From Planctomycetota bacterium (GTDB lineage Bacteria; Planctomycetota; JAJSAM01; JAJVHW01): 64,000 bases of DNA. Positions 2,712 to 18,470 of the stretch are shown in pieces. The position numbers and the translations under genes were made by a program. The notes beneath the pieces were generated by a model that was not told the DNA's origin, ran no database searches, and worked only from the letters and a program-made list of their open reading frames with translations. The stretch covers positions 4,958 to 68,957 of the forward strand of contig JAJVHW010000006.1 of NCBI GenBank assembly GCA_022072415.1, read 5' to 3'. The first letter of the stretch is position 1, and each line of letters begins with the position of its first letter.

Positions 2712-4631
2712 TCACTTCCCTCCCACGTACCCGAGGCGGCGAAGCGCCTCGATCGTCCCGGCGTCGAGGTCGCGGGCGCCGCCGAGGAGGGCGGCGGCGG
2801 CGAGGCGGGTGAAGAGGTCGTCCATCAGCGAGAGGGCGCGGCGGGTCTCGGTGGCCTGTTCGACGGCGACGTCCTTCCGGTGGCGCGGGTCGCGCTCGTC
2901 CTCGTAGGCGGAGACGGACTCCTGGAGGGGCGCCTTCGCGCGGATCGCGAGGAGGGAGCCGTCGCGGATCGAGCGGAGGGAGACGGGGGTCATCGTGACC
3001 TCGGCGAGGACGGGCCGCGGGGCGATCGCGTCGGGGCGCGGGCCGGTGCCGAGGACCTGCGCGAGGAGGGACCGGCCGGAGCGCTGCGGGTCGGCGATGC
3101 GCGGGTCCTCGATGCCGCAGAGCTCCGTGAGGGTCGGGCCGACGTCGAGGAGCGTGGCGATGCCGCGGATGCGGCGGCCGCGCGACGCGGCGGGCGCAAC
3201 CGCGTCCGGCGCGCGGATCACGAGCGGCACCGAGATCACCTCGCGGTGGAGCGAGTGCCCGTGGGTCCATCCGCCGTGCTCGCAGAACTCCTCGCCGTGG
3301 TCGGCGAGGACGACGACCACCGTGTCGTCGAGCATCCCCCGCGCGCGGAGCCCGTCCACGAGCTTCCCGAACTCGCGGGACCAGCCGCGGATCTCGCCGT
3401 CGTACTGCGCCACGAGCTTCGCGCGGAAGGCGGGGTCGGGCTCCGGCGTCGTCTGGAACGGGAGGATGCCGTTGTAGCGCGGCGGTTCGGCGTACTCCTC
3501 GCCCTTCGGGAAGCCCATCGCCTCGGCGTCGGCGCGCGCGGGGACGTACGGGAGATGCGGCTCCATCGCGTGGACGTAGGCGAAGAAGGGGCGCCCGTCC
3601 TTCCTCGCCTCGTCGGCGAATGCGAGGGCGCGCTCGTGCAGGTGCGCCGCGCCGCGCTCCTCGCGGACGCCCACTCCGAACGGGCGGCCGGCGAGCGAGA
3701 GGACGCGCGTCATGAAGAGCGCCTTGCCGAGGAGCGTGCCGTTCACGACGACGCTCGGCGCGACGCCCTCGAAGCGCTCGAAGCCCTGTCCGAGCCCGAA
3801 CTCCTCGGAGACGAACGGGTTGTCCACGAACGCCGCGGTGCGCCATCCGGCCGCGCGGAACGTCTCCGAGATCGTGACCGCCTCCGGCACGAGCACGTCC
3901 CGCTGCTCGATGCACGCGTGCGTCGTCGGGTACATCGACGTGAAGAGCGACGCCACCGAGGGCTTCGTCCACGAAGTCACGGCGCGCGCGTCGTTGAAGG
4001 CGACCGCGTCCTTCGCGAACGCGTCGAACTCGGGGCTCGTCGGCTTCGCGTACCCGTGGAAGGAGAGATGGTCCGCGCGGAGCGTGTCCACGAGCACGAC
4101 GAGCACGTTCGGCCGCGGCTTCCCGCCGGCCGGGCCGCGCACCAGCGGCGCGTCGCCTTCGCCGCGGGGCGGGAGGACGAACCCGAAGAGCGCCGCGATG
4201 CCGAGCGACGCGATGGCGAGGAGCGCCCATCGTCCGCCGTGCGTCGCGTCGGCGCCCGGGGACCGGTAGCGCACCGTCACGAGGCCGGCGGCCGCGGCGA
4301 AGAGGAGCAGATCGACGAAGATCGAAAGCGGAGACGTGAAGCCGTCGAGCGCGGCCACGTTGATCCAGGCGGTGACGAAGAACCACACCGCGCCGCCCGC
4401 GAGGAGCAGGTCGAGCATGCGGAACGGCCACGCGAACCGCCGCGCCACGAGCACCGCCGCGGCGCCGAGCGGCGCGAACCATCCCGCGTAGAAGAGGACG
4501 ACCTTCCACCCGTGGTGCGGCTGGAGCACCTCGTGGGAGCTCCCGAGCGCGCGGCCCACGTCGAGGAGTCCCGCGAACGCGCCCGCCGCGGCACCCTGGA
4601 GGACGCCCCGCAGGATCGACGGCTTCCGCAT
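2712..4631 (-). CDS. Membrane-anchored sulfatase (alkaline-phosphatase superfamily)
   Basis: Several N-terminal TM helices are followed by the sulfatase signature LVVLVDTLRADHLSFHGY and the metal-binding region VLADHGEEFCEHGGWTHGHS. The start MRKPSIL was chosen inside the long ORF 2712..5099, whose upstream portion is Arg-rich junk. Confidence 0.8.
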   Translation of the reverse strand: MRKPSILRGVLQGAAAGAFAGLLDVGRALGSSHEVLQPHHGWKVVLFYAGWFAPLGAAAVLVARRFAWPFRMLDLLLAGGAVWFFVTAWINVAALDGFTSPLSIFVDLLLFAAAAGLVTVRYRSPGADATHGGRWALLAIASLGIAALFGFVLPPRGEGDAPLVRGPAGGKPRPNVLVVLVDTLRADHLSFHGYAKPTSPEFDAFAKDAVAFNDARAVTSWTKPSVASLFTSMYPTTHACIEQRDVLVPEAVTISETFRAAGWRTAAFVDNPFVSEEFGLGQGFERFEGVAPSVVVNGTLLGKALFMTRVLSLAGRPFGVGVREERGAAHLHERALAFADEARKDGRPFFAYVHAMEPHLPYVPARADAEAMGFPKGEEYAEPPRYNGILPFQTTPEPDPAFRAKLVAQYDGEIRGWSREFGKLVDGLRARGMLDDTVVVVLADHGEEFCEHGGWTHGHSLHREVISVPLVIRAPDAVAPAASRGRRIRGIATLLDVGPTLTELCGIEDPRIADPQRSGRSLLAQVLGTGPRPDAIAPRPVLAEVTMTPVSLRSIRDGSLLAIRAKAPLQESVSAYEDERDPRHRKDVAVEQATETRRALSLMDDLFTRLAAAALLGGARDLDAGTIEALRRLGYVGGK

Positions 4632-4635
4632 CCCG

Positions 4636-5784
4636 TCAGCCCCCGAACCGGTAGTCGTAGAAGGACGTGTCGCCCGGCGCCGGCAGCGCGCCCTTCCGGA
4701 GCAGGATCGTGCGCACGGCCCAGAGATCCTTGAACACGCGGTAGCGGAGCGCCGTGGAGTCGAGGTACGCGACACCCTCCGAACCGCCCGTCCCCGGCCG
4801 CGAACCGATCTCGCGCTCGACCATGCGCGCGTGCCGCTGGCGGAAGATGAGCATCGACTGCTCGAGCGCGACCAGCGAGTCGAGGAGTTCCCGCGGCCAC
4901 GCGAGGAGCGGCAGGTCGCGGTAGCTCTCGATGAAGAGGATCGCCGCGCGGATGCGGCTGCGCCGCGCGCGCTCGGCGTCGGACGTGCCCTCGGGGAGGT
5001 CCGCGGCGCGGAGGAAGTCGCGGGCCCGGGCGACCTCCGCGCGGTAGCGCGCGGCGAGTGCGCTCCGCGCCGCGGGGTCCTCGAGCTGGAGCGCCGCACG
5101 CGCGTCGGGATCGCCGATGTCCCGCTCCATCGCGGTCACGTAGTCCGCGCAGAAGCCCGCCACGACGGCGGCATCGCCCGCATCCCCCGGACGGCTCCCG
5201 AGGATCGGCGTGCGATGGAGCCACCGCTCGAGCACGACCAGGATCGGCGGGCCGGACTCGCGGAGCGCGTCGAGGCGCGACTTGCTGCCGCTCGCCGAGC
5301 CGTCGGCGTTCATGAGCGCGCGGTCCTGCGAACCCTTCCCGCCGTAGCCGATTCGCGCCGCCTCGTCGAGCCCGAGGATCGCCTCCACCTCGCGGAACTG
5401 GCCGGACTGGAAGCCGCTCGCGCGCATCAGCTTCTCGCGGAAGTCGAGGAAGTCGCGCGTCGAGAGCGTCTCCATCACGCGCCAGTGCTGCGCGGCGATC
5501 TCGAAGATGACCCCCACGCGGCGGAGCGAGTGGACGGCCACGCTCATCCGCTGGTCGGGCACGAACTCCGGGAGCAGCTCGTCGCGGATCCCGCGGAGTT
5601 CGCGGATCGCCAGCTTGAACCAGAGCTCGTAGATCTGGTGGACGACGATGAAGAGTTCCTCGTGCGTCGAGACCGGCGCGCCGCCGACCCCGCCCTGGAG
5701 CGAGAGCAGAGCGTCCACGCGGAGATAGTCCCAGTAGCTCGTCGCCCGCGGTCCGGCTGCGCCGGGGTGGTCGGGTGCGGTCAT
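4636..5784 (-). CDS. kynA: Tryptophan 2,3-dioxygenase
   Basis: The TDO signature SYWDYLRVDALLSLQ and the segment FIVVHQIYELWFKL are present. The start MTAPDHP overlaps the upstream gene's stop (ATGA). Confidence 0.8.
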   Translation of the reverse strand: MTAPDHPGAAGPRATSYWDYLRVDALLSLQGGVGGAPVSTHEELFIVVHQIYELWFKLAIRELRGIRDELLPEFVPDQRMSVAVHSLRRVGVIFEIAAQHWRVMETLSTRDFLDFREKLMRASGFQSGQFREVEAILGLDEAARIGYGGKGSQDRALMNADGSASGSKSRLDALRESGPPILVVLERWLHRTPILGSRPGDAGDAAVVAGFCADYVTAMERDIGDPDARAALQLEDPAARSALAARYRAEVARARDFLRAADLPEGTSDAERARRSRIRAAILFIESYRDLPLLAWPRELLDSLVALEQSMLIFRQRHARMVEREIGSRPGTGGSEGVAYLDSTALRYRVFKDLWAVRTILLRKGALPAPGDTSFYDYRFGG

Positions 5785-6881
5785 TGGATCTCCTGTCTGA
5801 CCTCGGGGACGTCCCGGACGAGCATCCCCGAGACCCGCGCGGCGACGAGCGCGGCCCACGCCATGGCGAACCGCACGCCGAACAGGACGAAGCGGAGCAG
5901 GTCGCGGCCGAAGGTGTGGTCCTCGATCGTCGCGCCGCGCTCCGGCGACGGGTTGAACGTGCCGGAGAGCACGGCCGCGATCCCGAAGAGCCCGAGGAAG
6001 GCCGCGGTCGGCGCCACGGCGATCTTCGCCGCGAACGCGTTCTTCCTCCACGCGCGGAGCGAACGGGTCGGGAGCGCGCCGGACGCGTCGTCGCGGAGGA
6101 CCGTCGCGGCGTGCGCGAACGGCAGGTGGAGCGTGGCGGCGACGAGGCACGCGGCGAGCACCGCGGCCGTGAGCCAGGAAGGCGCGCCGAAGGCGGACTG
6201 GACCGACATCCAGAGCCCGGCGGGAAGCATCCCCACCGCGAGGCAGACCACGAAGAGCCCCGCCGCCGTGCGCCGGTCCATCGGATCGAGTTCGTCGGTG
6301 AAGCCCGCGACGGGCCGGTCCTCGATCGTGGCCTTCGTGATGCGGCGGGACCAGAGCCCGAGCACGGCGAACGCGGGGATCCAGAGCGCGCCGCGGAGCC
6401 ACATCAGGTAGTGGCGCGAGTCCTTCGTGGAGCCGCCCTCGACCCACGACATGAAGAGGAAGAGCGCCGCGAGCATGAACGTGGCCGGGAGGACGCCGGG
6501 GGCCACGGGCGTGCGGAGGATCTCGAGCCACGGGGACTCGGACGGCGCGCCCGGGTCCGCGGGCGCCGGCGCGGACGGCGCTGCGACGGCGGGTGCGGCG
6601 CTCTCGACAGTCGGCTGCGGTTCGGACGCGGGTGCCTCCGCGACGGGCTCCGTGCCGGGCGTCGCATCGGGCGAAGCGCCGTTCGTTGCGCCAAGCGTTG
6701 CGCCTAGCGTTGCGTCGGGCGTCGCGGGCGGAGGGCTCCCCGCCGGCTCCATCTCGAGCGGCGCCGACCCGGACGAATCGCCGCCGGTCGCGTCGGGCGG
6801 CTCGTCCGCGTGCGTCGGTCGGACAGGACCCGCGCGGCGCGGCTCGGGGTCCCCCGGCTCGAGCTCCAGCGGCCCGGTCAT
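5781..6881 (-). CDS. Hypothetical polytopic membrane protein with Pro/Ala/Thr-rich N-terminal low-complexity region
   Basis: Five or six hydrophobic helices follow an N-terminal PT-rich repeat (ATPDATLGATLGATNGASPDATPG). The start MTGPLELEP makes an ATGA overlap with the upstream lipoprotein gene. Confidence 0.55.
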   Translation of the reverse strand: MTGPLELEPGDPEPRRAGPVRPTHADEPPDATGGDSSGSAPLEMEPAGSPPPATPDATLGATLGATNGASPDATPGTEPVAEAPASEPQPTVESAAPAVAAPSAPAPADPGAPSESPWLEILRTPVAPGVLPATFMLAALFLFMSWVEGGSTKDSRHYLMWLRGALWIPAFAVLGLWSRRITKATIEDRPVAGFTDELDPMDRRTAAGLFVVCLAVGMLPAGLWMSVQSAFGAPSWLTAAVLAACLVAATLHLPFAHAATVLRDDASGALPTRSLRAWRKNAFAAKIAVAPTAAFLGLFGIAAVLSGTFNPSPERGATIEDHTFGRDLLRFVLFGVRFAMAWAALVAARVSGMLVRDVPEVRQEIQ

Positions 6882-7279
6882 CGGACCGCGGGGAAGAGCT
6901 CGCGGAACGCCACCGACTCGGGGGAGAGGAAGACGATCTCGAGGCCCGGCAGGCGCTTCACCGGCAGCCAGGCGTTCCACGACACGCCGTCGGACTCGTC
7001 CTCGCTCAGCGCGTTCCGGTTCACGCTGAACACGTCCTTGAAGCACCCGCGGATCGGGCCTTCCGGAACGCACTGGATCACCTGGTACTCGTCCTGCACG
7101 CGGTGGACGAACACCTCTCCGTGCGACGACTTCCACGGTTCGCCGAGGCGGAGCGGCTGGACGCTCCCCGGGGAGACCGGCGCGGCGGTGCTGCCGCCCT
7201 GCGAGGCGCAGGCGGCGAGCGTCGCGGCAATCGAGAGGACGAGCACGACGTGCGGCGCCTTCTTCACGGCGGGGTGCAT
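6878..7279 (-). CDS. Small lipoprotein (signal peptide plus lipobox LAAC)
   Basis: The N-terminus MHPAVKKAPHVVLVLSIAATLAACAS is a signal peptide with a lipobox. It is the first gene of a four-gene overlapping operon. Confidence 0.6.
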   Translation of the reverse strand: MHPAVKKAPHVVLVLSIAATLAACASQGGSTAAPVSPGSVQPLRLGEPWKSSHGEVFVHRVQDEYQVIQCVPEGPIRGCFKDVFSVNRNALSEDESDGVSWNAWLPVKRLPGLEIVFLSPESVAFRELFPAVR

Positions 7280-7319: not shown

Positions 7320-9161
7320 TCACCGCCCGGAGAGCTTCTCCTCGGTCAGCGTCCCGTCGTCCTGCCGGATGACGTACGCCCGGCGCCCCGCCACGTCGCG
7401 GAACTCGTGCGACGTGCCGCCCGGCCACTGGATCACGACCTTCCGCGCGGCGGGCTCCGCGCCGAGCCCGAAGAAGAAGCGCGGATCGTTGTCGCCGCAG
7501 AACGAGTCGCCGTAGTGGAGCTCGCGGACCTGCACCGAGCCGTCGGCCATGGTGACGAGGACCCGCGCCCCGGCCGGCGTCGTGAGGGGCTTCTTCCCGT
7601 CGAGGCGGAACCGCAGGAACGAGTTCCTGTTCCCCCCGTCGTTCCGGAAGAGCGCCGCCTTCCCGTTGAGCGCGCCGACCCACACGTCCTCGTCGCCGTC
7701 GTCGTCGAAGTCGGCGAAGGTCGCGCCGCGCCAGACGCGCTTCAGGCCGAACGCGGGCCCGGCGTCGTCGGTCACGTCCCGGAGCATCCGCGCGGTCGTG
7801 CCGTCGTTCCGGAGCACCTGGCAGCGCTGCGCGTAGCTCGTCTGCGTCGTCTTCTCGAAGTCGTCCATCTCGCCGTAGACGTGCCCGCACGCGGTGAAGT
7901 AGTCGAGCCATCCGTCGAGGTCGAAGTCCACGAACTTGACGCCCCAGCTCAGGCGGAAGTAGCTCGGCTGCGCGAGCCCCACGGCGTGCGTGCTGTCGGT
8001 GAACGAGATCACGCGGCTCCCGTCGGGGCGGCGGGTGCGTCCGGTCTTGTTCAGGTAGATGGTGTTGTAGTCGTGGGAGAAGTTGGTCACGGTGAGGTCG
8101 AGCCAGCCGTCGCGGTCGTAGTCCGCGGCGTCCACGCCCATGCACGCCTGCTCCAGCATGTCGCGGTTCATGGCGACGCCCGCCTGGAGGGCCAGGTCCT
8201 CGAAGACGCCCTTCCCGTCGTTCACCCAGAGGTGGTTCGACTGCGTGTCGTTCGCCACGAAGATGTCGAGGTCGCCGTCGTTGTCCACGTCGGTCATGAC
8301 GGGGGAGAAGCCGTAGTAGGCCTTCTGGTTCCGGAGGCGCGCCTTCGATTCGTCGGAGAACGTGCCGTCGCCGCGGCCGATCCAGAGACGGTCGAGCTGT
8401 CCCGTGAGTCCCGCGGGGCCCACGTACACCTTGTGACCGCGCCAGGTCGCGTTCCGTCCGCCGATCCCGGCCTTCCGGCACTCGTCGATGTACGCCTTCT
8501 GGTCGGAGTAGTTCGCCGCGTAGATGTCGAGGATCCCGTCGCCGTTCACGTCGCCGAGCGCGCAGGAGGTCGTCATCTCCCAGTCGCCGCCCGCGACGTC
8601 CGCGCGGTCCGTGATGTCCTCGAACGTGCCGTCGCCGCGGTTCCTGTACAGGCGGTTCCGGCCCCAGCAGCAGATGTACAGGTCCGGCCAGCCGTCGCCG
8701 TCCACGTCGCCGGCCGCGCCGCCGAACCCGAACGCCTGGAGGTCGATTCCCGCGGCCTTCGTCACCTCGGTGAACTTCATCCCGCCTTCGTTGCGGAAGA
8801 GGCGCGTGCGGGCCTCGTCGAGGTACTCGAGGACGCCCTGGTCGGTCAGCATCGTGCCGTCCACCACGCAGAGGTCCATGTCGCCGTCGCGGTCGTAGTC
8901 GAACGCGATCGCGGCGGCGCCCATGCCGGAGACGATCCAGTCCTTCTTCGCCGGCTTCCCGGTGTGGTTCATGGTCGCGACGCCCGCCTCCTCGGCGACG
9001 TCCACGAACGTCGGGAACGGGGCGGCCGCGGGCTTCGCGGGCGGGCGCTCCGCCGGGGCCTGAGCGGGGGTCGGCGGCGCATCGGGCGAACTGGGCGCGA
9101 CGGGCGCGGGCGCGGAGTCGCACGCCGCGAGCGCGAGGGCCGCTCCCGCCGCGGCGAACAT
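7320..9161 (-). CDS. FG-GAP/VCBS repeat lipoprotein with C-terminal ASPIC/UnbV domain (CRTAC1-like)
   Basis: Lipoprotein signal MFAAAGAALALAACDS is followed by repeated DxDGDGxxDL motifs and a C-terminal ELHYGDSFCGDNDPRFFFGLG (ASPIC-UnbV). The start was chosen inside ORF 7320..9515. Confidence 0.8.
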   Translation of the reverse strand: MFAAAGAALALAACDSAPAPVAPSSPDAPPTPAQAPAERPPAKPAAAPFPTFVDVAEEAGVATMNHTGKPAKKDWIVSGMGAAAIAFDYDRDGDMDLCVVDGTMLTDQGVLEYLDEARTRLFRNEGGMKFTEVTKAAGIDLQAFGFGGAAGDVDGDGWPDLYICCWGRNRLYRNRGDGTFEDITDRADVAGGDWEMTTSCALGDVNGDGILDIYAANYSDQKAYIDECRKAGIGGRNATWRGHKVYVGPAGLTGQLDRLWIGRGDGTFSDESKARLRNQKAYYGFSPVMTDVDNDGDLDIFVANDTQSNHLWVNDGKGVFEDLALQAGVAMNRDMLEQACMGVDAADYDRDGWLDLTVTNFSHDYNTIYLNKTGRTRRPDGSRVISFTDSTHAVGLAQPSYFRLSWGVKFVDFDLDGWLDYFTACGHVYGEMDDFEKTTQTSYAQRCQVLRNDGTTARMLRDVTDDAGPAFGLKRVWRGATFADFDDDGDEDVWVGALNGKAALFRNDGGNRNSFLRFRLDGKKPLTTPAGARVLVTMADGSVQVRELHYGDSFCGDNDPRFFFGLGAEPAARKVVIQWPGGTSHEFRDVAGRRAYVIRQDDGTLTEEKLSGR

Positions 9162-9187
9162 GCGGCTCGAGCGGTTCCGGGTCAGCT

Positions 9188-9358
9188 TCACGGCTCCTCC
9201 GAATCCGCCCGACGGGCGTCCCACATCTGCTTCACGCGCGCGAGGAAGTAGACGACCGCGGAGAGGACGAGCACGCCCGTCCCCGTCGTCTGCCACCGCT
9301 CGCCCCCGGCGAGCAGGATCGCCGCTCCGGCGACGAGGAGGACGCACGCGGCGACCAT
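9188..9358 (-). CDS. Small two-TM membrane protein (56 aa)
   Basis: The sequence MVAACVLLVAGAAILLAGG...VLVLSAVVYFLARV is hydrophobic. It sits immediately upstream of the FG-GAP lipoprotein gene, and only the 3' part of ORF 9188..9829 is plausible. Confidence 0.35.
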   Translation of the reverse strand: MVAACVLLVAGAAILLAGGERWQTTGTGVLVLSAVVYFLARVKQMWDARRADSEEP

Positions 9359-9547
9359 GCCTGCGTTCAAGCGGAACGTGAAGGGGAGCACGGGCCGGAA
9401 GGTATCCGTCCCGCCCGCGGAATTCGACGTCCGCAGGGCGGGTCCCGGGCGGTGCGCCCGCGCGAACCGCGCGCGAGTCGGGATTTCCGACGGGAACCGG
9501 CGGGCGGCGGAGCATGGTACGGCGTCGTGACCCGGGAGGGCCTGGGG

Positions 9548-9934
9548 TTGCCCGATCTCACCCTGAAGTGCCGAGACTGCGGAGCCGACTTCGTCTTCAG
9601 CGAGGGCGACCAGAGCCGATTCGCGGAGCACGGCTACGCGCCGCCCCGGCGATGCAAGTCCTGCCGCGCGAGGCAGCGCACGCGCGCGGCCAGCACCGGC
9701 ACCGGCGTCGGCACCGGCGATTCGGGGAGGGCTCCCGGCGGCGTTCCCCAGGGGACCCCCGCGCCCGGCGGCGGCGCCGCGGGGGCGGACACGCCTCGCT
9801 CCCGCCCGAAGCCCGCGGGGCCGATGCACGACACCCGGTGCAGCGAGTGCGACGCGCCGACGCAGGTGCCGTTCGTGCCGGACGGACTTCGTCCGGTGTT
9901 CTGCCTCGCCTGCCTGAAGAAGCGCACGCGCTGA
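9548..9934 (+). CDS. Zinc-ribbon protein (two CxxC...CxxC pairs), probable TTG start
   Basis: Two Cys pairs are present: KCRDCGADFVFSEGDQSRFAEHGYAPPRRCKSCR and CSECDAPTQVPFVPDGLRPVFCLACL. GGAGGG at 9535-9540 lies 7 nt before TTG 9548. The ATG at 9452 gives an Arg-rich, implausible N-terminus. Confidence 0.5.
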   Translation: MPDLTLKCRDCGADFVFSEGDQSRFAEHGYAPPRRCKSCRARQRTRAASTGTGVGTGDSGRAPGGVPQGTPAPGGGAAGADTPRSRPKPAGPMHDTRCSECDAPTQVPFVPDGLRPVFCLACLKKRTR

Positions 9935-9968: not shown

Positions 9969-12071
9969 TCACCGCGACGGCTCGAGCCTTCCCGTCCCCT
10001 CGGTCGCCGTCCACGCCACCCGCGCGTCGCCGGCCGCCTCGGCGGGCACCTCGAAGGTCTCCGTCGCGCCCCAGGGCCACCGGACCGAGAGCCGGCGCAG
10101 ACGCCCGCCGCTCCCGAGCCCGAGGTGGACGCGCGTGTCCTCGCTGCCGCCGAAGGAGGAGCCGATCCGGACGTCGCGCACGATCGTCCCGCGCGCGCCG
10201 TCGGCGGCTTCCGTCACCGCGGTCACCTTCGCGCCGACGGCCACCGCCCCGTCCTTCCGCAGCACGCGGACCAGCGCCGCCCCGCCGCTCCCGCGGCCGT
10301 CGTTCCGCAGCACGACCGGCGCACCGTCGAGCACGGTCAGGACGAGATCGAGGTGCCCGTCGTCGTCGAGATCCGCGGCGAGGAGGCCTCGGTGCGCGCG
10401 CGGCACCGCCACGTCGCCCGCGTCGCTCGACACCTCGGTGAACCGGCCCGTGCCGTCGTTCCGCATCACGGCCGTGTGCTGGCGGTACGTCGTGTCGGGC
10501 GCCGCGGCGCGCACGTCGGGGTAGAGGTGCCCGTTGGCGTAGGCGAGGTCGAGGTCGCCGTCGTTGTCGAGGTCGGCGAACGACGCGCCCCAGCCCAGCG
10601 TCAGGAACCCGGGGCGGCCCACGCCGGACGCGCTCGTCACGTCGGCGAAGACCGGCGCGCCGGTCGCTCCCATCGAGCGGTAGAGGATGTTCGTCTCGTG
10701 GCTGAAGTTGGTGACGAAGAGGTCGGTCCGCCCGTCGCCGTCGGCGTCGCCCGCCGCGACGCCCATGCTCGCCTGCTCGGCGCCCTGTCCGTCGGACGCG
10801 CAGCCCGACTCGACCGCGGCGTCGCGGAAGCGCCCGCGTCCGTCGTTGAGGAGCAGCACGTTCTTCTGCGCGTCGGCCGCGACGTACACGTCCGGGTCCC
10901 CGTCGTCGTCGTAGTCGGCGACGACCGCCTGGAACGACCAGCGGCGGAGGTGCGGCGGAAGGCACGCGTCCGTGGCGTCGTCGAACGTGCCGTCGCCGCG
11001 GTTCAGGTACACGCGGTCGCGCTGCGGCTCGAGCGGCGCGGGGCCGCACGCGACCGGGAGCGATCGCCACGTGCAGGAGCGGCCGTGCGCCGACTCCTGC
11101 ATGAAGCGGTGCATGTTCGCGTAGTTCGCCACGTAGAGGTCGAGGTCGCCGTCGCCGTCGAAGTCGGACATCGCGGCCGACGTGCTCCACTCGTCCTCGC
11201 CGCCGCCGATCCCCGCGCCTTCGGACGCTTCGCGGAAGCGCATGCCCCCTTCGTTCAGGAACAGGCGGTTCCGGCCGAGGCACGCGACGTAGACGTCGAG
11301 CCGCCCGTCGCCGTTCACGTCCCCCGCCACGGCGCCGCAGCCCCATGCGTCGGCGCGGAGGCCGGACTGCCTCGACACGTCGGTGAAGCGGAATCCGCCG
11401 TCGTTCCGGTAGAGCCGCCAGGTCTCGCCGACCCGCTCGCCGCCGACCAGCGCGGCGGCGCCCGGGAAGAAGAGGTCGAGGTCGCCGTCGCCGTCCGCGT
11501 CGAACGCGCACGCGCCGTGCCCCGTGGTCTCGACCATCCAGTCCTTCGAGTCGAGGCGACCGCGGAGCGGCGCGGCGGTGATGCCCGACCCGCGCGTGAC
11601 GTTCGCGAACTGCGGGCCGTCGTAGCCGGGAACGTGCGGCGCGGCGAGCGCGTAGCCTTCGACGGGGTCCTCGGGGGTGGCGGGTCCGACGGTGCCCGAG
11701 TTCCAGGCCGCCCACCCGGCGACCGCGGCGAGGACCGCCGCGGCGGCCGCGGCGGCGCGCAGGCCCGCGCGACGCATCGGCGTCACCCGCCCCGCCGGGA
11801 GCGCGGACATCACGCGGGCCACGAGTGCGCGGTCGGCCTCGTGCTCCGACGCTGCGTCGGGGACGAGTTCGGCGCGGAGCAGGTCGGCCGTGGCGCGGAG
11901 CTCGTCGCGGAGCGCGGCGCAGTCCGGGCAGGCGGCGAGGTGCTCGACCATCGCCACGCGTTCGTGCGACGGGACTCCCGCCTCCTCGACGGGGATCGTG
12001 TCGCCGATCGTGCGCTCGAGCACGCGCTCCGCGGCGGCGCAGGCCGGCGGACGCGGGTCGCGGGCGGTCAC
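9969..12071 (-). CDS. Anti-sigma factor (zf-HC2, HLAACPDCAAL) fused through one TM helix to an extracytoplasmic FG-GAP/ASPIC-UnbV domain
   Basis: GTG start (VTARDPRPPACAAAERVLER) overlaps the sigma factor's stop (GTGA). One TM helix (AAAAAAVLAAVAGWAAW) is followed by DxDGDGxLD repeats and a C-terminal GSSFGGSEDTRVHLGLG. Confidence 0.75.
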   Translation of the reverse strand: MTARDPRPPACAAAERVLERTIGDTIPVEEAGVPSHERVAMVEHLAACPDCAALRDELRATADLLRAELVPDAASEHEADRALVARVMSALPAGRVTPMRRAGLRAAAAAAAVLAAVAGWAAWNSGTVGPATPEDPVEGYALAAPHVPGYDGPQFANVTRGSGITAAPLRGRLDSKDWMVETTGHGACAFDADGDGDLDLFFPGAAALVGGERVGETWRLYRNDGGFRFTDVSRQSGLRADAWGCGAVAGDVNGDGRLDVYVACLGRNRLFLNEGGMRFREASEGAGIGGGEDEWSTSAAMSDFDGDGDLDLYVANYANMHRFMQESAHGRSCTWRSLPVACGPAPLEPQRDRVYLNRGDGTFDDATDACLPPHLRRWSFQAVVADYDDDGDPDVYVAADAQKNVLLLNDGRGRFRDAAVESGCASDGQGAEQASMGVAAGDADGDGRTDLFVTNFSHETNILYRSMGATGAPVFADVTSASGVGRPGFLTLGWGASFADLDNDGDLDLAYANGHLYPDVRAAAPDTTYRQHTAVMRNDGTGRFTEVSSDAGDVAVPRAHRGLLAADLDDDGHLDLVLTVLDGAPVVLRNDGRGSGGAALVRVLRKDGAVAVGAKVTAVTEAADGARGTIVRDVRIGSSFGGSEDTRVHLGLGSGGRLRRLSVRWPWGATETFEVPAEAAGDARVAWTATEGTGRLEPSR

Positions 12072-12715
12072 TGTCCGTCCTCCATCCGTTCGCGGAGCTT
12101 CCGGAGCGCGCGGGAGATGCGCATCGCGACCGCGGGCGGCTGTTCGCCGAGTGCGGCGGCGATGTCCTTCACCGCCTGCCCTTCGCGGAATCGGAGGAGC
12201 AGGACGATCCGCGTCCTCTCGTCGAGCTCCGCCAGGTGTCCGAGCATGGTGCGCGTCTCCTCCGCCCGTTCCATCGCCGCGCCGGGAGCGGCGGCGCCGG
12301 GGTCGGCGAGTTCCTCGATCGTGCGGTCGGCGGAGTCGTCGCTCCCGCCGTCGCCGCCCCGTCCCGTCGCGGGGGCGAGCGGCCCCCCCGCCCGCCGCTT
12401 CCGGCGCCGGAGCTCCTCCAGCGCTCGGTGCGTGGCGATGGTCGAGAGCCACCCCGCGAACCGTTCCGGGTCGGCGAGCGACGGCAGGCGTTCGAACGCG
12501 GCGAGGAAGACATCCTGCGCCGCGTCCTCGGCCTCCGGCGACCTGCCGAGCCGGGCCGTGACGAGCGCGCGCACGACGCCCGCGTACTTCTCCGCGAGCC
12601 GCCCGAACGCGGAGCGGTCGCCCCCCCTTGCGAGGAGGACGAGCTCGGCGTCCTCGGCGAACCCGGCGGGAGCGTCGGTCATCGTGCGCCCGGCGTCCGT
12701 GCCCGGCCTGTGCAT
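12068..12715 (-). CDS. ECF (sigma-70 family) RNA polymerase sigma factor
   Basis: Region 2 (LLARGGDRSAFGRLAEKYAGVVRALV) and region 4 (EGQAVKDIAAALGEQPPAVAMRISRALRKLRE) are recognisable. It is translationally coupled to the anti-sigma gene. Confidence 0.85.
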   Translation of the reverse strand: MHRPGTDAGRTMTDAPAGFAEDAELVLLARGGDRSAFGRLAEKYAGVVRALVTARLGRSPEAEDAAQDVFLAAFERLPSLADPERFAGWLSTIATHRALEELRRRKRRAGGPLAPATGRGGDGGSDDSADRTIEELADPGAAAPGAAMERAEETRTMLGHLAELDERTRIVLLLRFREGQAVKDIAAALGEQPPAVAMRISRALRKLRERMEDGQ

Positions 12716-13042
12716 GGGAGGATGCTCCCCGACCCGCGCCGCAACACCGAGGGGAAGGGGACGCCCCGGCCGGACCCCATCCGCACCCCGAGCCTCGCAT
12801 CCGGCGCCGCCCCGCGACTCCCCGCACCCCCCCCCTGCCAGCCGCTTCCAACGAACCCGCGCCCAGACCCGCCGGGGGCGACGACGTCAGCCAGGTCTTC
12901 GGACGTCCGCAGGAAGCGAACAGGCTGTCGTGATCACTACAGATCCGCAGGCGCTCATCGCCCCGCCCGGCGTGCAGTCAGGGCAACGGGGCGACGCGAA
13001 CGGGAGCTTTCGAGTGTTTGAGAGCCGTCCCCGTTGGCCCGC

Positions 13043-13516
13043 TCATCCATCCTCTCCCCAGGCCCCATTGGACTCGGAGCAAAGGAAGACCGTTCGCCCC
13101 GGATACAACCCAAACGGATCTCGAATGATAACGTACCTTCCACCCAATCCCGGTCCCCAATCCGGGCGTGGCTCAATAAACCTAAACAGCGTGGGCCGAA
13201 GATCGATGCGCTCAGGTGCGATATCCATGACATTCATTCGAAGATACCCGCTCACGGCCGCGCTATGAGAGATTCGATGTTTCAACGTTTGCCCAGACAG
13301 TATCGACAACACGATCGCGATCACTCCCGCCGGACCGGAAACAATGGAGAACGATCGGACTAACAGCGACGACTTCCTGCACCTGTTCGCAAATGGCACA
13401 AACCACAAGAATGCAGCGATGGCGACTGCAATCACCGCGCCCGTGCGCGCGAATACCCAGGCAAGCATGAACGAAAGCAGCGTCCCGATCAACAGACGAA
13501 ACGTCCACTTATGCAT
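13043..13516 (-). CDS. Hypothetical membrane protein (low-GC cargo ORF)
   Basis: MHKWTFRLLIGTLLSFMLAWVF...AVAIAAFLWFVPF has 3-4 hydrophobic segments. Codon usage is atypical of the host. Confidence 0.45.
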   Translation of the reverse strand: MHKWTFRLLIGTLLSFMLAWVFARTGAVIAVAIAAFLWFVPFANRCRKSSLLVRSFSIVSGPAGVIAIVLSILSGQTLKHRISHSAAVSGYLRMNVMDIAPERIDLRPTLFRFIEPRPDWGPGLGGRYVIIRDPFGLYPGRTVFLCSESNGAWGEDG

Positions 13517-13699
13517 TGGCGGTACCTACTTACTCCTAAGCCTCTTCCACGTGATCGATCCACTTGAGCCGCATCCAGGAGCCGAGTTTCGACATCCGAA
13601 CCACACCGGCTTGTTGCCGCGTAGATGCCCGAAGAGCAGTGCGTACATGCAACACTCCTTGCAGCATTTTGACTGCCTCTCCTTGGACGCGCAGTTTCG

Positions 13700-14617
13700 A
13701 CCGCATCTGTGGTGTGCCAAGAAACGATTCCGGTTTGACGAGGGCGTTCACCGGACACCTCGGGTTCGTCTGATGAGTCCGAGTTCCTCCATCGATGCAT
13801 AGATCGCTTCACGCCGCGCCTTGCGCCGCGCTCGCTCCGATTCGACGCCCGGCAGGGCCTCGGCGAGACGACGGCTGAGGGTCGCGAGGAAGCGTTCACG
13901 AGTCCCAGCATCGTACCAACCCGTCAAGTCCGCGTCCGCCGCCGAGGCCGTCCTGTACCCGAGCCCTCTGCGCAGCCGCCGTTCGTCGAGCAGCGTTCTT
14001 GCCTTCTCGATGCGTGCACGGACCGGGGCGGCGTCGTTCACGACGACACCGCGGCCGAGACCCGTCTCCTCCTTCAGCTCGCGGTTCGTCCTCTCGACCC
14101 ACGCGCTGTGCTGCGGCGTGTGCGGCAGCAAGAGCGGATGCACGACGCCCTGCTCCTTCAGCCACTCCTCGACCGTCCCGCACCTGTAGATCGGGCCGTT
14201 GTCCGTCACAAGCACGAGCGGCAGGCGGCCGCGCTCCACGGCGATCCGCGTGAGGAGTCGCACGACCGCGTCGCCGTCCGCCGGAGCGCCGACCTCGGCG
14301 GCGAGGATCCTCGGCGTCGACACCTCGCGCACCACCTGCCCCTCGACCGCCTCCCCGCCTTCGGTGCGCGCGAGGTGCGTTCCGTCCATCGACCACATCA
14401 CGTCGCGGCCCCCGACCTCTACCGATGTGCGGTGTTCGGCCGCGTGCCCGCGCCGCTGCCTGCGGCGGCTCTGCTTGATCTCGGCGAGGCACTGCCGCAC
14501 GAGGCAGATCGTGAACTTCCGCCAGAAGTCCGGGACCGCCGACGTGCTCGACATCCACGCGCGCCTCGCCACGGCTCTTGAGAGGCTCCGCGAGCGCCAG
14601 CGCCGCACCTGACACAC
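13700..14617 (-). mobile_element. IS copy A: one terminus (TGTGGTGTGCCAAGAAACGATTCCGG) plus an N-terminally truncated rve/DDE transposase (13748..14617)
   Basis: The integrase core is recognisable (MWSMDGTHL, LVLVTDNGPIY, HSAWVERTNRELK). The N-terminal HTH is missing. Confidence 0.7.
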
Positions 14618-14671
14618 CGCCGGGTCCGGTGACTACGTGTCCTCTCCCACCGCGGGCGCACCTACCAGAGC

Positions 14672-14905
14672 GTGAAGGCGAGCCTGCGGATCACCCTCCG
14701 CCGGGCCGGGCTCGGCGACCGCCACGACCTCACGTTCCACAGCTTCCGCCACAGCTTCGCGACGTACTTCCTGGAGCGCGCCGGGGCGGTCACGGACCTC
14801 CAGCAGCAGCTCGGGCATGCGGACCTGAGCACGACGCAGATCTACGCGACGGGGGTCTCGGCGCGGCGGCGGGAGGCGGTGATGGGGATGGAGTTCGGCG
14901 GGTGA
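14672..14905 (+). pseudogene. C-terminal fragment of a tyrosine recombinase/phage integrase
   Basis: It contains [13 protein letters not shown]...[13 protein letters not shown] (the H-x-x-R, H and Y catalytic box). Only 77 aa remain, abutting IS copy A. Confidence 0.6.
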
Positions 14906-15005
14906 AGGGGAGCACGTCCGCATCCCGCTCCCGGACGCCCGAGGTGACGATCATCCGTCAGAAAGCAACCGAATGTCGTAATCCGTAGCCTGGAAACCGA
15001 TGTCA

Positions 15006-15413
15006 TCAACGTCCCGCCGGAACTCTGAATGACACCTCGCCGCGCGAGTTTGCACCCTCAATGGTCGGCTCACCCGCGTCGTCAAATCCGATCACAATTC
15101 GGGAGCCGGTGCCAGACAGCAGCTCCAACGCTGGGGAGTTGCCCCCACCGCCACGAGCGACCATCAGCCGGGCGTACGACTTGTGGTCTGGACCAATGAC
15201 CCCAACCGATGATCGTCCATGCTCCTGACTCCACTCCATAAACGCAATCTGGCGTGGCTCCGCCTCGTTTCCCACGCACAGCTGGCGGCGCGAGCTCTCG
15301 CCGAGCAGCGTGACGGTACGGTGCAGTCTTCGGAACTCGCGGAGTGCGCCGATCGAGGACACGACAATCAGGACCCCAAGAGTAGCCAACCAGAACATCG
15401 TCGCTCGAGTCAC
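15006..15413 (-). CDS. Hypothetical N-terminally membrane-anchored protein (low-GC cargo ORF, GTG start)
   Basis: GGAGGTGAG lies 8 nt before the GTG start. The anchor is MFWLATLGVLIVVSSIGAL. Confidence 0.5.
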   Translation of the reverse strand: MTRATMFWLATLGVLIVVSSIGALREFRRLHRTVTLLGESSRRQLCVGNEAEPRQIAFMEWSQEHGRSSVGVIGPDHKSYARLMVARGGGGNSPALELLSGTGSRIVIGFDDAGEPTIEGANSRGEVSFRVPAGR

Positions 15414-15549
15414 TCAACTCACCTCCGGTCGGGATCGAACTAGTGCCTTCTAGCCTTCATGAGATGCTAGTCAATCGAAAAGCCAGTTCCAGACCTTTGT
15501 CCAGATGCTGTCTCCGCCCGTATGTTCCTCGACGACTGGCTCGACCTCT

Positions 15550-15842
15550 AGGTCCGCAACAGCAGCACAGACGCGAGCAACGTCTCGATCGCCGCCTTTG
15601 ACCTCTACGGCGCGGGTCTCCGGCTGAAGAAGACCTCCTTCGGGAACGGCAACACCTCTGAGCTCGTCTACGACGGCTTCCGCCGCCCGGTCGAGATCAA
15701 CCACAAGCTCTCGGGGGGCAGCGAGTTCGCGGGGCAGGACTGCGCCTGGGACAAGAACGACAACCCCCTCATGGAGAAGCGGAGCCACGAGTCCGGGAAG
15801 GGCGACGTCTACACCTACGACAACCCTCAAGTTGATTGTTGA
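15550..15842 (+). pseudogene. RHS/YD-repeat protein fragment (no start codon)
   Basis: Translation gives AAFDLYGAGLRLKKTSFGNGNTSELVYDGFRRPVEINHKLSGGSEFAGQDCAWDKNDNPLMEKRSHESGKGDVYTYDNPQVDC, which carries YD-repeat motifs. It is a high-GC segment embedded in low-GC DNA. Confidence 0.55.
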
Positions 15843-15904
15843 GAGCGTCCCACTTGGCAACTCTTGACCGTACCCCGGCGCGACTGGCCCGGGTGAGTAT
15901 GACG

Positions 15905-16347
15905 CTACTTCTGCCCGGGTGAGTATCCGCTTGCGGGCGGCTCGGAGACGATGACGACAGAGGGCTCAACTACACGGCATTCAACTTTCAAGTCACGAAA
16001 AGCGTCACGAAGCCGAACAACGCCCGCGGGTCGCTTCGCCTCAAGGAGGCACTCCCCCGACACGGGAAACCCCAAGCGCTCCTTGATGCGACCGATCAAA
16101 GCTGTTGCACCGTAGCGATGAATCTCCGTCAACTTCAGATACTCCGAATCACCGACTTCCATCCACTGTCCGCGCCCACTCATCGCTAGCCCCCCGACTC
16201 CATGAACATCAACACAGAGATCTGTATCCCCACGTAGATGGGCGTTGTGATGCACCCAATAAGTGTGTTCATCGATGAACACCCACAGCGCGACGACGGC
16301 CGCCGTCGTGACCACTACAATCTTCAGCAACAGTCGGCGGTTCACAC
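15905..16347 (-). CDS. Hypothetical membrane-anchored protein (low-GC cargo ORF)
   Basis: MRVNRRLLLKIVVVTTAAVVALWVF is the likely anchor. Upstream codons of ORF 15905..16603 are alternate-frame IS sequence. Confidence 0.4.
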
Positions 16348-16404
16348 GCATGCCAGCTCTCGAGTGTGACTCATGAAGTGTGATGCATGAAGATAGCTCG
16401 CTTG

Positions 16405-16880
16405 AGCGACCTGTGGTGTGCCAAGAAGCGATTCCGGTTTGACGAGGGCGTTCACAGGTCACCTCGGGTTCGTCTGATGAGTCCGAACTCCTCCGTCGAC
16501 GCGAAGATCGCTTCACGCCGCGCCATGCGCCGCGCACGCTCCGATTCGAGGCCCGGCAGGGCCTCGGCGAGACGACGGCCGAGGGTCGCGAGGAAGTGCC
16601 CACAAGTCCCCGGATCGTACCACCTCGACACGTCGGCGTCCGCCGCCCCCGTCGTGCGCCGGCCGAGGCCGCGGTGGCGCCGCTCCTCGTTCAGCACACG
16701 GCGCGAGCACTCGATCCGTTCCCCAGCCTCGGCGGGCGTCCTCACGACGACCCCGCGGCCGCGGCCGGACACCTCCCTCAGCTCACGGTCCGTCCGCTCG
16801 CCCCGCGCGCTCTGCTGCGGCGTGAACGCCAGCGACAGCAGGTGCACGCGGGCATCGCTCAGGAAGTCCTCGTCCATGTC
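16405..16880 (-). mobile_element. IS copy B: same terminus plus a C-terminal 140 aa transposase fragment (16452..16877)
   Basis: The fragment is about 90% identical to copy C and about 75% to copy A. It is truncated within the TPQHSA codons. Confidence 0.65.
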
Positions 16881-17063
16881 ACCTCCGACGCCGGAGGTGA
16901 GCGTCAGTCGCGGGCGTCGAGTTGCGGTCAGCCCGGCGCGTCACGGGCGGAAGTGAGGAACGCGCGATGCCCGGCACGGCCCGGCTCGGCCGGCGGGTAC
17001 CTGGCACCGAGTGCATCACCGAGCGGTGGGTTTGTACCTGGCTCCGCATGACATGGCTCCGTG

Positions 17064-17684
17064 TTACCGCGAACCGACGCACGAAAGCTCCACTCGGATC
17101 AGCGCGTCTCCCCGAACATCAATGACGTCCTTTGAGATGTATCCGCGAGCCACCCCCCGAGAGAGGGATGAAACGTAGACCCAGAACTGCCCCCTTCGAG
17201 CCGTCGGGAACACGACGCCCTGTCGGTACACCTTCGCATTCATCACGCACCTGTGCCGGAGCTCGCTTGAACTCAGTCCGCGCACGTCATCGACTGACTT
17301 GCGAGGGATCAGTCCAGCGACTTCGGATTCGCCACCTTTCGGTAATGGACGCCGAACCAGTCTCAGCTCGACGCGGACGCCCCGAGCCAACGTGATCGAA
17401 ACGTGCACTGTCCGACCTTGAACTACAAGCCGAATGCTCCGCGCTTGATACGTCGACAAGTCTTTCACGGAGACAAGACGTAGCGACTCGCGGCCCGCTA
17501 TCACCTCAGCAAATCTCGGGGAGCCCTCACAGAGGGCTGTGAACTGACCCCGCGCATCCGTTTCGCAACGATACTCCGACAGCCACGCGCCGTCGGACGC
17601 GGTGAACGTGACTGCCACCTGCGCACACTCTACTGGAGTGCCGCTTCGACTGAGTACTCGTCCAACGACCGCGGTCGAACGCAT
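17064..17684 (-). CDS. Hypothetical protein with a carboxypeptidase-regulatory-like beta-sandwich N-terminus
   Basis: GAGGTGAG lies 6 nt before the ATG. The motif GTPVECAQVAVTFTASDG...TDARGQFTA resembles a CarboxypepD_reg domain. Confidence 0.45.
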   Translation of the reverse strand: MRSTAVVGRVLSRSGTPVECAQVAVTFTASDGAWLSEYRCETDARGQFTALCEGSPRFAEVIAGRESLRLVSVKDLSTYQARSIRLVVQGRTVHVSITLARGVRVELRLVRRPLPKGGESEVAGLIPRKSVDDVRGLSSSELRHRCVMNAKVYRQGVVFPTARRGQFWVYVSSLSRGVARGYISKDVIDVRGDALIRVELSCVGSR

Positions 17685-17744
17685 CAGCGCTCACCTCGCA
17701 TGAGTGCCCGCAACATGCGCACATTATGCCTCACAGGAAACACT

Positions 17745-18470
17745 GTGGTGTGCCAAGAAACGATTCCGGTTTGACGAGGGCGTTCACCGGTCACCTCGGG
17801 TTCGTCCGATGAGTCCGAACTCCTCCGTCGACGCGAAGATCGCTTCACGCCGCGCCATGCGCCGCGCACGCTCCGATTCGAGGCCCGGCAGGGCCTCGGC
17901 GAGACGACGGCCGAGGGTCGCGAGGAAGCGTCCACAAGTGCCCGGATCGTACCACCTCGACACGTTGGCGTCCGCCGCCCCCGTCGTGCGCCGGCCGAGG
18001 CCGCGGCGGCACCGCTCCTCGTTCAGCACGCGGCGCGAGCACTCGATCCGTACACCGGCCTCGGCGGGCGTCCTCACGACGACCCGGCGGCCGAGGTCGG
18101 ACGCCCTCTTCCGCTCACGGTTCGTCCGCTCGACCCGCGCGCTGTGCTGCGGCGTGTGCGGCCCGGTCTGGACGTGCGCGGCGCCTCGCCGCGCGGAGTG
18201 CATCGCGCCGCAGACGAGAGCGAGGGTCGTGCCGAACCGCCTTGCGGCGTCTGCCCAGGTCGTGCTGCGTGACGTGGCGTGGAGCGCGTGGAGTTCGTGG
18301 GTCGTCAACGCGCGACGGGATTCCGCTGCGAGCGCGGCGCATTGCGCGGCATGGACAGCGACATTGAGTGCCTCCCGTTCCCGGCCCCGCGGCCCCGCGG
18401 TCCCGTCGTCGCCGGCGCGCGGCCGCTGTGCCCGGGGGGAGCGCGGCTCGGCTCCCCGCTCCACCGCAGC
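17745..18470 (-). mobile_element. IS copy C: same terminus plus a truncated transposase fragment
   Basis: HTPQHSARVERTNRE...GLIGRTRGDR matches copies A and B. The breakpoint lies within 6 nt of copy B's breakpoint. Confidence 0.65.

Follow-up and report, generated by a model that had tools for sequence, protein, structure and literature searches.

In Bacillus subtilis, the sigma factor SigW and its anti-sigma factor RsiW are encoded in a two-gene operon, and RsiW joins an N-terminal HxxxCxxC domain through one transmembrane helix to an extracytoplasmic C-terminal part of about 100 amino acids; the pair is controlled by regulated intramembrane proteolysis. Larger outer domains of a ligand-binding type are fused to anti-sigma domains in RsiV (lysozyme), which is a DUF4179/lipocalin-like protein, and in the RsgI proteins (polysaccharides) of Clostridium thermocellum, equipped with CBM or GH domains (polysaccharide-binding or glycoside-hydrolase domains). 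In Escherichia coli, the anti-sigma factor RseA is accompanied by a separate periplasmic protein, RseB. Here we describe, in a stretch of 64,000 nucleotides of a Planctomycetota bacterium (GenBank assembly GCA_022072415.1, contig JAJVHW010000006.1, positions 4,958 to 68,957 of the forward strand; hereafter the window), two adjacent genes on the minus strand that appear to connect a sigma factor of the extracytoplasmic function (ECF) type, through a single-pass anti-sigma protein, to a beta-propeller of the CRTAC1/ASPIC family. The features of these two genes are as follows.

12068..12715, minus strand: ECF-type sigma-70 family sigma factor, 215 amino acids (Pfam and TIGR02937 scores)
9969..12071, minus strand: predicted anti-sigma factor with extracytoplasmic CRTAC1/ASPIC-like propeller, 700 amino acids (domain hits; AlphaFold model)
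11802..12071, minus strand: cytoplasmic anti-sigma domain, residues 1-90 (helices 9-20, 35-47, 49-69 and 73-90)
nt 11919-11942, minus strand: HxxxCxxC motif (putative zinc ligands Cys11, His44, Cys48 and Cys51)
11700..11762, minus strand: single transmembrane helix, residues 104-124, N-in/C-out (Kyte-Doolittle and model)
10287..11609, minus strand: seven-repeat FG-GAP/integrin-like beta-propeller, residues 155-595 (seven FG-GAP_3 stretches and seven calcium-loop motifs of the DxDxDG type)
9972..10283, minus strand: C-terminal UnbV_ASPIC beta-sandwich, residues 597-700 (Pfam; all-beta model 597-698)

The first-pass annotation of this DNA, made by a model from the sequence, had read the two genes as an ECF sigma factor coupled by a GTGA overlap to an anti-sigma factor, and this reading stands. 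The sigma protein scored above the gathering thresholds of Sigma70_r2 (4e-14, 52.5 bits against 24), Sigma70_r4_2 (6e-9, 35.8 bits against 25.7) and Sigma70_ECF (7e-6, 26.6 bits against 21.1) and above the cutoff of TIGR02937 (75.5 bits against 42.9), and the domain search returned no match to region 3 or region 1.1, in keeping with an ECF (group 4) protein, which has sigma-2 and sigma-4 alone. Its best NCBIfam subfamily was TIGR02984 (Sig-70_plancto1), of which, with 86 bits against a cutoff of 184, it is not a member. The closest solved structures were AlgU (6in7_B, 1.8e-11) and SigW (5wuq_A, 2e-10).

The start codon of the anti-sigma gene, GTG 12071-12069, overlaps the stop codon of the sigma gene, TGA 12070-12068, in the sequence cagTGAcc (the sigma open reading frame, ORF, ends in ...GGAGGACGGACAGTGACC), and a Shine-Dalgarno sequence, GGAGGA, lies 6 nt before it. 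GTG 12071 is the only plausible start of the anti-sigma gene, the next in-frame start codon being located beyond the conserved Cys11. For comparison we used 12 syntenic loci or contigs (L001, L002, L004-L009, L127, L128, L129 and the P0010 contig), and the same 4-nt overlap was called in all six relatives with gene calls (five loci and the P0010 contig). Translation of the two genes is coupled, and we have little doubt that the sigma factor and the 700-residue protein constitute a sigma/anti-sigma pair. As to the start of the sigma gene itself, ATG 12715 lies 3 nt past a promoter-like motif described below; ATG 12681 is a possible alternative (204 amino acids) that matches the gene start given for L127, the closest relative, and in L002 and L004 there is no start codon at the position of the upstream one.

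The 700-residue protein has an exact record at NCBI, 'MAG: hypothetical protein HMLKMBBP_00168 [Planctomycetes bacterium]' (MAG, metagenome-assembled genome). It contains the sequence HLAACPDC at residues 44-51 (H44-x3-C48-x2-C51), and Cys11, located 33 residues before it, extends the pattern to C-x32-HxxxCxxC and is a possible fourth zinc ligand. When the full-length orthologues were aligned, the H/C/C triad was present in 24 of 28; H44, C48 and C51 are invariant in these motif-bearing proteins, and C11 is at least 90% conserved. All four putative ligands are replaced in P0015, P0021, P0025 and P0032, which retain the propeller, the transmembrane helix and the sigma partner, and this joint loss of the triad and the first cysteine is the pattern expected of a four-ligand metal site. 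In the PDB, the four best matches of a profile built from 20 orthologous N-termini were RsiW (5wuq_C, E = 0.004), RslA (3hug_B) and ChrR (2q1z_B and 2z2s_B), the SigW-RsiW complex 5wuq being found in this way by both the sigma and the anti-sigma domain searches. Searched against 1.84 billion cluster representatives, the N-terminal profile retrieved 3,446 proteins at E <= 0.001, and 131 of its 150 best matches were Pfam zf-HC2 members. The NCBIfam model NF052375 ('antisigma') matched the window protein with 1.2e-8, under its cutoff.

The AlphaFold models had a mean predicted local distance difference test (pLDDT) score of 90.8 for the whole anti-sigma protein and of 90.5 for its N-terminal 127 residues; in them His44 ends helix II, the CxxC opens helix III and a linker joins the fourth anti-sigma helix to the transmembrane helix. 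The N-terminal 90 residues carry the sequence signature and the predicted four-helix topology of an anti-sigma domain, and the motif, the gene order and the family profile support its being of the zinc-finger type (class I), similar to the zinc-binding anti-sigma (ZAS) proteins. The zf-HC2 assignment of the first-pass annotation is thereby upheld for the motif and at the level of the family profile, but not for the single sequence, whose Pfam score stays below threshold. The single transmembrane helix that it had proposed was recovered in a topology check, in which the one strongly hydrophobic window (residues 104-122, the Kyte-Doolittle maximum) agreed with the modelled helix (105-124 or 104-124). 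An Arg-rich flank before this helix and an acidic flank after it indicate an N-in/C-out topology and, with one transmembrane helix, the propeller lies outside the cytoplasm.

The extracytoplasmic part, described beforehand as FG-GAP repeats followed by an ASPIC-UnbV C-terminus, proved to be just that. FG-GAP_3 matched it in seven stretches (1e-49, 167 bits) and UnbV_ASPIC at residues 611-676 (2.5e-12, 46.9 bits, cutoff 23.4), and the Asp residues of the calcium loops are invariant over 92 homologues. The best solved match was murine CRTAC1 (9etn_A), both by sequence (phmmer, 4.7e-18) and by fold (Foldseek, E = 3.7e-31, target-normalised template-modelling score of 0.74 across 588 columns). The outer domain is a bona fide member of the CRTAC1/ASPIC family, with which its 546 residues share the FG-GAP repeats, the DxDxDG loops and the UnbV_ASPIC C-terminus. 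A sensor role for it is plausible, and we lean, by a narrow balance, towards its being the input domain of the system. Cys 333/342 were considered as a feature specific to the anti-sigma clade and were dropped, as the CxW...CGP pattern is also found in ordinary CRTAC1-family members.

The concern that a frameshift or an assembly error had fused two proteins is removed by the existence of about 28 full-length orthologues with the same architecture (673-718 amino acids, 88-99% query cover, 46-74% identity). All of them come from Planctomycetota MAGs or from metagenomes, every taxonomically labelled one being a Planctomycetota MAG, and a metagenome scan added one further full-length orthologue only. 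Architecture and gene order are conserved in this group of uncultured Planctomycetota, and within the anti-sigma/propeller clade the outer domain of about 550 residues is 53-79% identical. In contrast, thousands of other homologues align over the propeller only and are secreted, lipid-anchored or fused to TPR domains; the other members of the CRTAC1/ASPIC/UnbV family were found without a cytoplasmic domain, the anti-sigma domain and the transmembrane helix being present in this clade only. Six candidates for independent fusions (L090, L046, L078, L067, L043 and L034) were rejected, their longer N-termini being signal peptides or transmembrane anchors. Of the 150 proteins closest to the anti-sigma domain, only members of the family itself had FG-GAP repeats, which indicates that, within reach of our searches, the combination of anti-sigma domain and propeller arose once.

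A comparison of the 260 nt preceding the sigma genes revealed a bipartite motif in the window and in the relatives.

12719..12745, minus strand: bipartite motif GTTGC-N15-GCATCCT, putative autoregulatory ECF promoter, directly upstream of the sigma gene

The motif GTTG(C/T)-N15-GCATC(C/T)T precedes the sigma gene in 12 of 12 orthologous loci, with a spacing of 16 in L006. The site of the window is the sole exact match in its 64 kb, where 0.02 would be expected. With a position weight matrix (PWM) built solely from the sigma sites it scored 27.2, and in a background of 2.53 Mb of unrelated loci no more than two hits reached 16, the higher one scoring 17.6. We infer from this that the sigma factor uses GTTGY-N15-GCATCYT as its promoter. 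Just upstream of the sigma motif, a palindrome GCAACG-CTAC-CGTTGC was observed in L001 (7376-7395), L002 (7366-7385) and L004 (7375-6394 region), and in these three loci the opposite strand, facing the abhydrolase gene, reads GTTGC-N15-GCGTCCT, which nearly repeats the motif; in L009 (95-135), four tandem GTTGC pentamers take the place of the palindrome. The palindrome and the pentamers could represent divergent promoters of the regulon or the binding site of another regulator.

A second propeller gene lies downstream, separated from the anti-sigma gene by a convergent zinc-ribbon gene and a small ORF.

7320..9191, minus strand: free CRTAC1/ASPIC-like propeller lipoprotein, 623 amino acids (FG-GAP_3 8e-41, UnbV_ASPIC 1.6e-14)
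9188..9391, minus strand: small ORF for a protein with two predicted transmembrane helices, 67 amino acids, GTG start (conserved in 10 loci)
9399-9404, minus strand: TACCTT box of the TAnnnT type, 7 nt before the start of the small ORF
9452..9934, plus strand: treble-clef zinc-ribbon protein gene (zf_Tbcl 3e-13, zf_Tbcl_2 2e-12; present in 11 of 12 loci)

The first-pass annotation had placed this free lipoprotein propeller beside the fused one as a paralogue, and it is one: the two propellers are 39% identical over 539 residues (E = 6e-104), both retain all seven calcium loops, the lipobox cysteine occurs in all free-propeller orthologues, and the two genes neighbour each other in all 12 informative loci. 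Two details had to be corrected. The gap between the propeller genes is 0.78 kb, and not about 1 kb; and the free gene, whose start had been set at ATG 9161, most likely begins 30 nt earlier at GTG 9191 (MKLTRNRSSRMFAAAGAALALAAC, lipobox LAAC), where it overlaps the stop of the small ORF (GTGA), an overlap of 4 nt that is found in seven of eight loci, with ATGA or TTGA in the relatives. The small ORF, which the first-pass annotation had passed over, is a genuine gene: it encodes two hydrophobic helices in 54-86 residues across the loci, and the codons of its conserved residues vary at synonymous sites. Its product had no Pfam match. In the most divergent orthologous locus, L129 (8296-12019), two free propeller genes stand in tandem and the zinc-ribbon gene is missing.

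In 9-10 relatives a second copy of the motif, with identical spacing, is located inside the small ORF, 55-90 nt before the start of the free propeller. L002, L004, L005, L006, L007, L128 and the partial locus L085 carry it exactly, and L001, L008 and L009 with one mismatch; four of these second sites scored 18.8-21.9 with the PWM, and in L008 one more site, immediately upstream of the abhydrolase gene, scored 20.8. The Leu codon of the small ORF that supplies the GTTG (-35) is TTG in every motif-bearing locus, and TTG accounts for 0-6.5% of the Leu codons in the adjacent large genes; its fixation despite this rarity points to selection on the DNA as well as on the protein. Taken as a whole, the motif suggests that the free paralogue is, in the relatives, probably a member of the regulon. 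The promoter search that had been proposed thus gave a conserved motif upstream of 12715 but none upstream of the free propeller of the window, where no site with two or fewer substitutions was present: where the relatives have their second motif, the window has TGG for TTG and GGCGTGCTC for GGCATCCTC, and L127 has CTG and GGGATCCTC.

A different type of element, the TAnnnT boxes (TACCTT, TACACT, TAGACT and TAGCCT), was observed 6-9 nt before the starts of the small ORF, the zinc-ribbon gene and the abhydrolase gene, in the window (9399-9404 on the minus strand, 18535-18561 on the plus strand) and in loci L002, L006, L007, L008 and L128. Their position suggests leaderless mRNAs transcribed from housekeeping-type promoters in this lineage, distinct from the sigma motif.

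We put at roughly 60% the probability that the locus encodes a functional ECF sigma/anti-sigma module of the classical single-pass, zinc-finger type in which a calcium-binding CRTAC1/ASPIC-like propeller serves as the input. At rest, the cytoplasmic domain would tether the sigma factor to the membrane. When the propeller senses a change, the anti-sigma factor would be inactivated, probably through regulated proteolysis as in RsiW, RseA or RsiV; the signal could be the binding or loss of a ligand, or the loss of calcium, and the relatives of the propeller fold would make a glycan or an envelope component the likeliest class of ligand. The freed sigma factor would then transcribe from GTTGY-N15-GCATCYT promoters, that of its own operon included. 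In most relatives, a second target would be the internal promoter in the small-ORF gene, driving the free propeller and the genes behind it; since the free copy carries a sigma-type motif in 9-10 related loci, it is best read as a likely output of the system, which could feed back on the signal. In the window this second promoter copy would have decayed, and the housekeeping-like TACCTT promoter in front of the small ORF seems to be the only one left to the free propeller.

Several observations weigh against this proposal. In the anti-sigma domain, Pfam PF13490 (zf-HC2) matched the window protein taken alone with E = 0.0087 and 16.6 bits, below the gathering threshold of 22.2, and over profile positions 20-35 only, i.e. 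the second half of the profile; given the 131 of 150 zf-HC2 matches at the family level, the low score is attributable to divergence of helix I rather than to absence of homology. When the isolated N-terminal model was compared with the PDB by Foldseek, no significant solved structure was retrieved, and the four orthologues devoid of any zinc ligand indicate that zinc is not essential to the family. As for the promoter, the motif was assigned to the sigma factor by position and conservation alone and is unlike the common ECF promoters of the GGAAC/CGT type; the instances of the second site are orthologous and hence not independent observations, and a regulatory link between the sigma factor and the free propeller is unsupported in this genome, the second motif being absent from the window and from L127. 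No ligand, site-1 protease or site-2 protease was identified for the module. In the five relatives whose gene calls carry Pfam annotation (four loci and P0010), a Peptidase_M50B gene is located three genes upstream, with a similar ORF upstream in L008, and its product could be considered as a candidate for intramembrane cleavage of the anti-sigma factor; however, it is not a canonical M50 protease of the RseP/RasP type, and it is absent from the 64-kb window, as are the PatA_N response regulator and the FHA-domain neighbours of the relatives.

The first-pass annotation had also suggested that the free propeller could act as a decoy or competitor. In an extended form of this explanation, it would titrate a ligand shared with the fused propeller, or dock on the fused propeller and protect it against the site-1 protease, in the way that RseB protects RseA, and thereby set a threshold or exert negative feedback. 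A rough neighbour-joining tree placed all 17 of the 17 anti-sigma propellers in one clade and the free propellers (11 and one orphan) in another, as sister clades, and the two share derived characters that are absent from other family members (W178 and insertions at 290 and 331), which, with the constant adjacency of the two genes and the seven calcium loops kept in both propellers, speaks for this explanation; moreover, the sigma-type motif on the free copy of most relatives would make its level rise upon induction. On the other hand, the two clades are 42.4% identical to each other and 41.6% identical to outsiders, so the duplication is old and the sister relation weakly supported; of the 129 positions that do not vary in the anti-sigma clade, 43 are not retained in the free clade; and the free copy shares its operon with enzymes and membrane proteins, which an effector role fits equally well. 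The motif on the free copy is compatible with feedback and does not by itself demonstrate competition. We consider a decoy or co-inhibitor unlikely, and we are as doubtful of a paralogue-based feedback in which the sigma factor would induce a free, lipid-anchored copy of the sensor that competes for the ligand or protects the anti-sigma propeller. If true, such a circuit would provide adaptation or threshold control, a design undescribed for ECF systems, and the first functional assignment for bacterial CRTAC1/ASPIC proteins.

The fold neighbours of the modelled propeller are ligand-binding or carbohydrate-acting proteins, which raises a second explanation: the propeller would be a carbohydrate-active or other enzyme, the module would report its substrate in the manner of the RsgI proteins of C. 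thermocellum, and the free paralogue would be the induced secreted enzyme. Beyond CRTAC1, weaker matches were obtained to the GlcNAc-binding fungal lectins AAL-2 and PVL, integrin alpha, aldos-2-ulose dehydratase, the rhamnogalacturonan lyase YesW and the biofilm-matrix protein Bap1 of Vibrio, and His and acidic residues (TNFSHE, ANGH.Y) show no variation within the anti-sigma clade and almost none across the wider family; a sulfatase-family gene is also present in the downstream cluster. However, these matches are distant (template-modelling scores of 0.3-0.5), the downstream genes form no recognisable glycan-utilisation set, and neither our searches nor our general knowledge provide a catalytic activity for any CRTAC1/ASPIC protein, and this explanation also appears improbable. 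Least probable of all is a thiol or redox switch like RsrA with the propeller as a fused, membrane-anchored structural or enzymatic module, since the conservation of the C-x32-HxxxCxxC ligands in most orthologues and the zf-HC2 membership of the family, which speak for it, are countered by the four orthologues that dispense with every ligand and keep propeller, transmembrane helix and sigma partner, by the fact that most ZAS proteins (RsiW, RslA partially, ChrR) are not thiol switches, and by the 53-79% identity of a 550-residue domain that is unlikely to be irrelevant to the module.

Taking the propeller as the input of a sigma/anti-sigma module, the likeness to SigW-RsiW extends to the operon, the HxxxCxxC domain, the single helix and the outer C-terminal part. 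The system differs from it in that 546 residues of propeller and beta-sandwich replace the short extracytoplasmic domain of RsiW, in that PrsW and RasP have no identified counterpart here, and in that the promoter motif departs from the SigW consensus. RsiV and RsgI offer an analogy in the large outer domain, but their folds are unrelated and their anti-sigma domains are of different classes. RseA-RseB may offer another in that a separate periplasmic protein encoded beside the anti-sigma gene could modulate its proteolysis, although RseB is not a paralogue of the periplasmic domain of RseA, whereas the two propellers here are paralogues.

An ECF sigma factor, a single-pass zinc-finger anti-sigma factor and a large outer domain are textbook elements, and the advance is incremental and not conceptual. 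What looks new is the combination of an ECF/anti-sigma module with a CRTAC1-like propeller and its conserved partnership with a free paralogue. In the literature, no paper was found that joins anti-sigma factors, FG-GAP and ECF; a search on UnbV/ASPIC with sigma factors returned unrelated genome papers only, the main text of the ECF re-classification paper makes no mention of FG-GAP, VCBS, UnbV or propeller, and no CRTAC1 structure paper was found. Propellers of the CRTAC1/ASPIC-UnbV family abound in Planctomycetota, Acidobacteriota, Poribacteria and other groups, our first search alone returning thousands of homologues, and we found no function reported for the bacterial ones. The main value of the locus is an experimental handle on that function: with the propeller wired to a transcriptional read-out that has a predicted promoter, the question of what it recognises becomes a reporter-gene experiment, and the pairing with the free paralogue and the motif in the relatives define a small testable regulon in a phylum with poorly characterised signal transduction.

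The common gene order of the syntenic loci is a divergent abhydrolase gene, sigma, anti-sigma/propeller, the convergent zinc-ribbon gene, the small ORF and the free propeller. In L005, about 5.5 kb are inserted after the anti-sigma gene. The abhydrolase gene is flanked in L001, L002, L008, L128, L129 and P0010 by genes for Peptidase_M50B, a PatA_N-type response regulator and two FHA-domain proteins. Several loci continue after the free propeller with genes for a small lipoprotein, a membrane protein, a tryptophan 2,3-dioxygenase and a membrane-anchored sulfatase-family protein, which in the window are the following.

6878-7279, minus strand: lipoprotein of 133 amino acids, tightly packed behind the free propeller
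5781-6590, minus strand: polytopic membrane protein with a weak UbiA-like match, tightly packed behind the free propeller
4636-5784, minus strand: tryptophan 2,3-dioxygenase (Pfam Trp_dioxygenase)
2712-4631, minus strand: sulfatase-family protein with an N-terminal membrane domain (Pfam Sulfatase)

This run (2712..7279, minus strand) is syntenic in L002, L006, L008 and the P0010 contig, and it is functionally an odd mixture, in which no shared pathway is obvious.

Upstream of the sigma gene, the window contains a block that its closest relative lacks.

12751..18411, no strand assigned: 5,661-bp block of 65% G+C, missing from the collinear contig L127

Apart from this block, which the first-pass annotation did not mention and which we read as an inserted mobile element, L127 and the window are collinear; the G+C content of the block, 0.65, compares with about 73-74% for the window. 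The block sits between the abhydrolase gene and the sigma motif, 5 nt upstream of the GTTGC element, so the core motif is intact (with its PWM score of 27.2) and anything further upstream has been displaced; in the relatives, the distance between the abhydrolase and sigma genes is 100-340 nt. Terminal inverted repeats or a target-site duplication were looked for at the ends of the block, and none was evident. Within it are an ORF resembling a transposase of the rve type (13748-14617, minus strand) and three direct copies of a segment of about 440 nt (at 13707, 16411 and 17743), and several unannotated ORFs of the block face the sigma gene.

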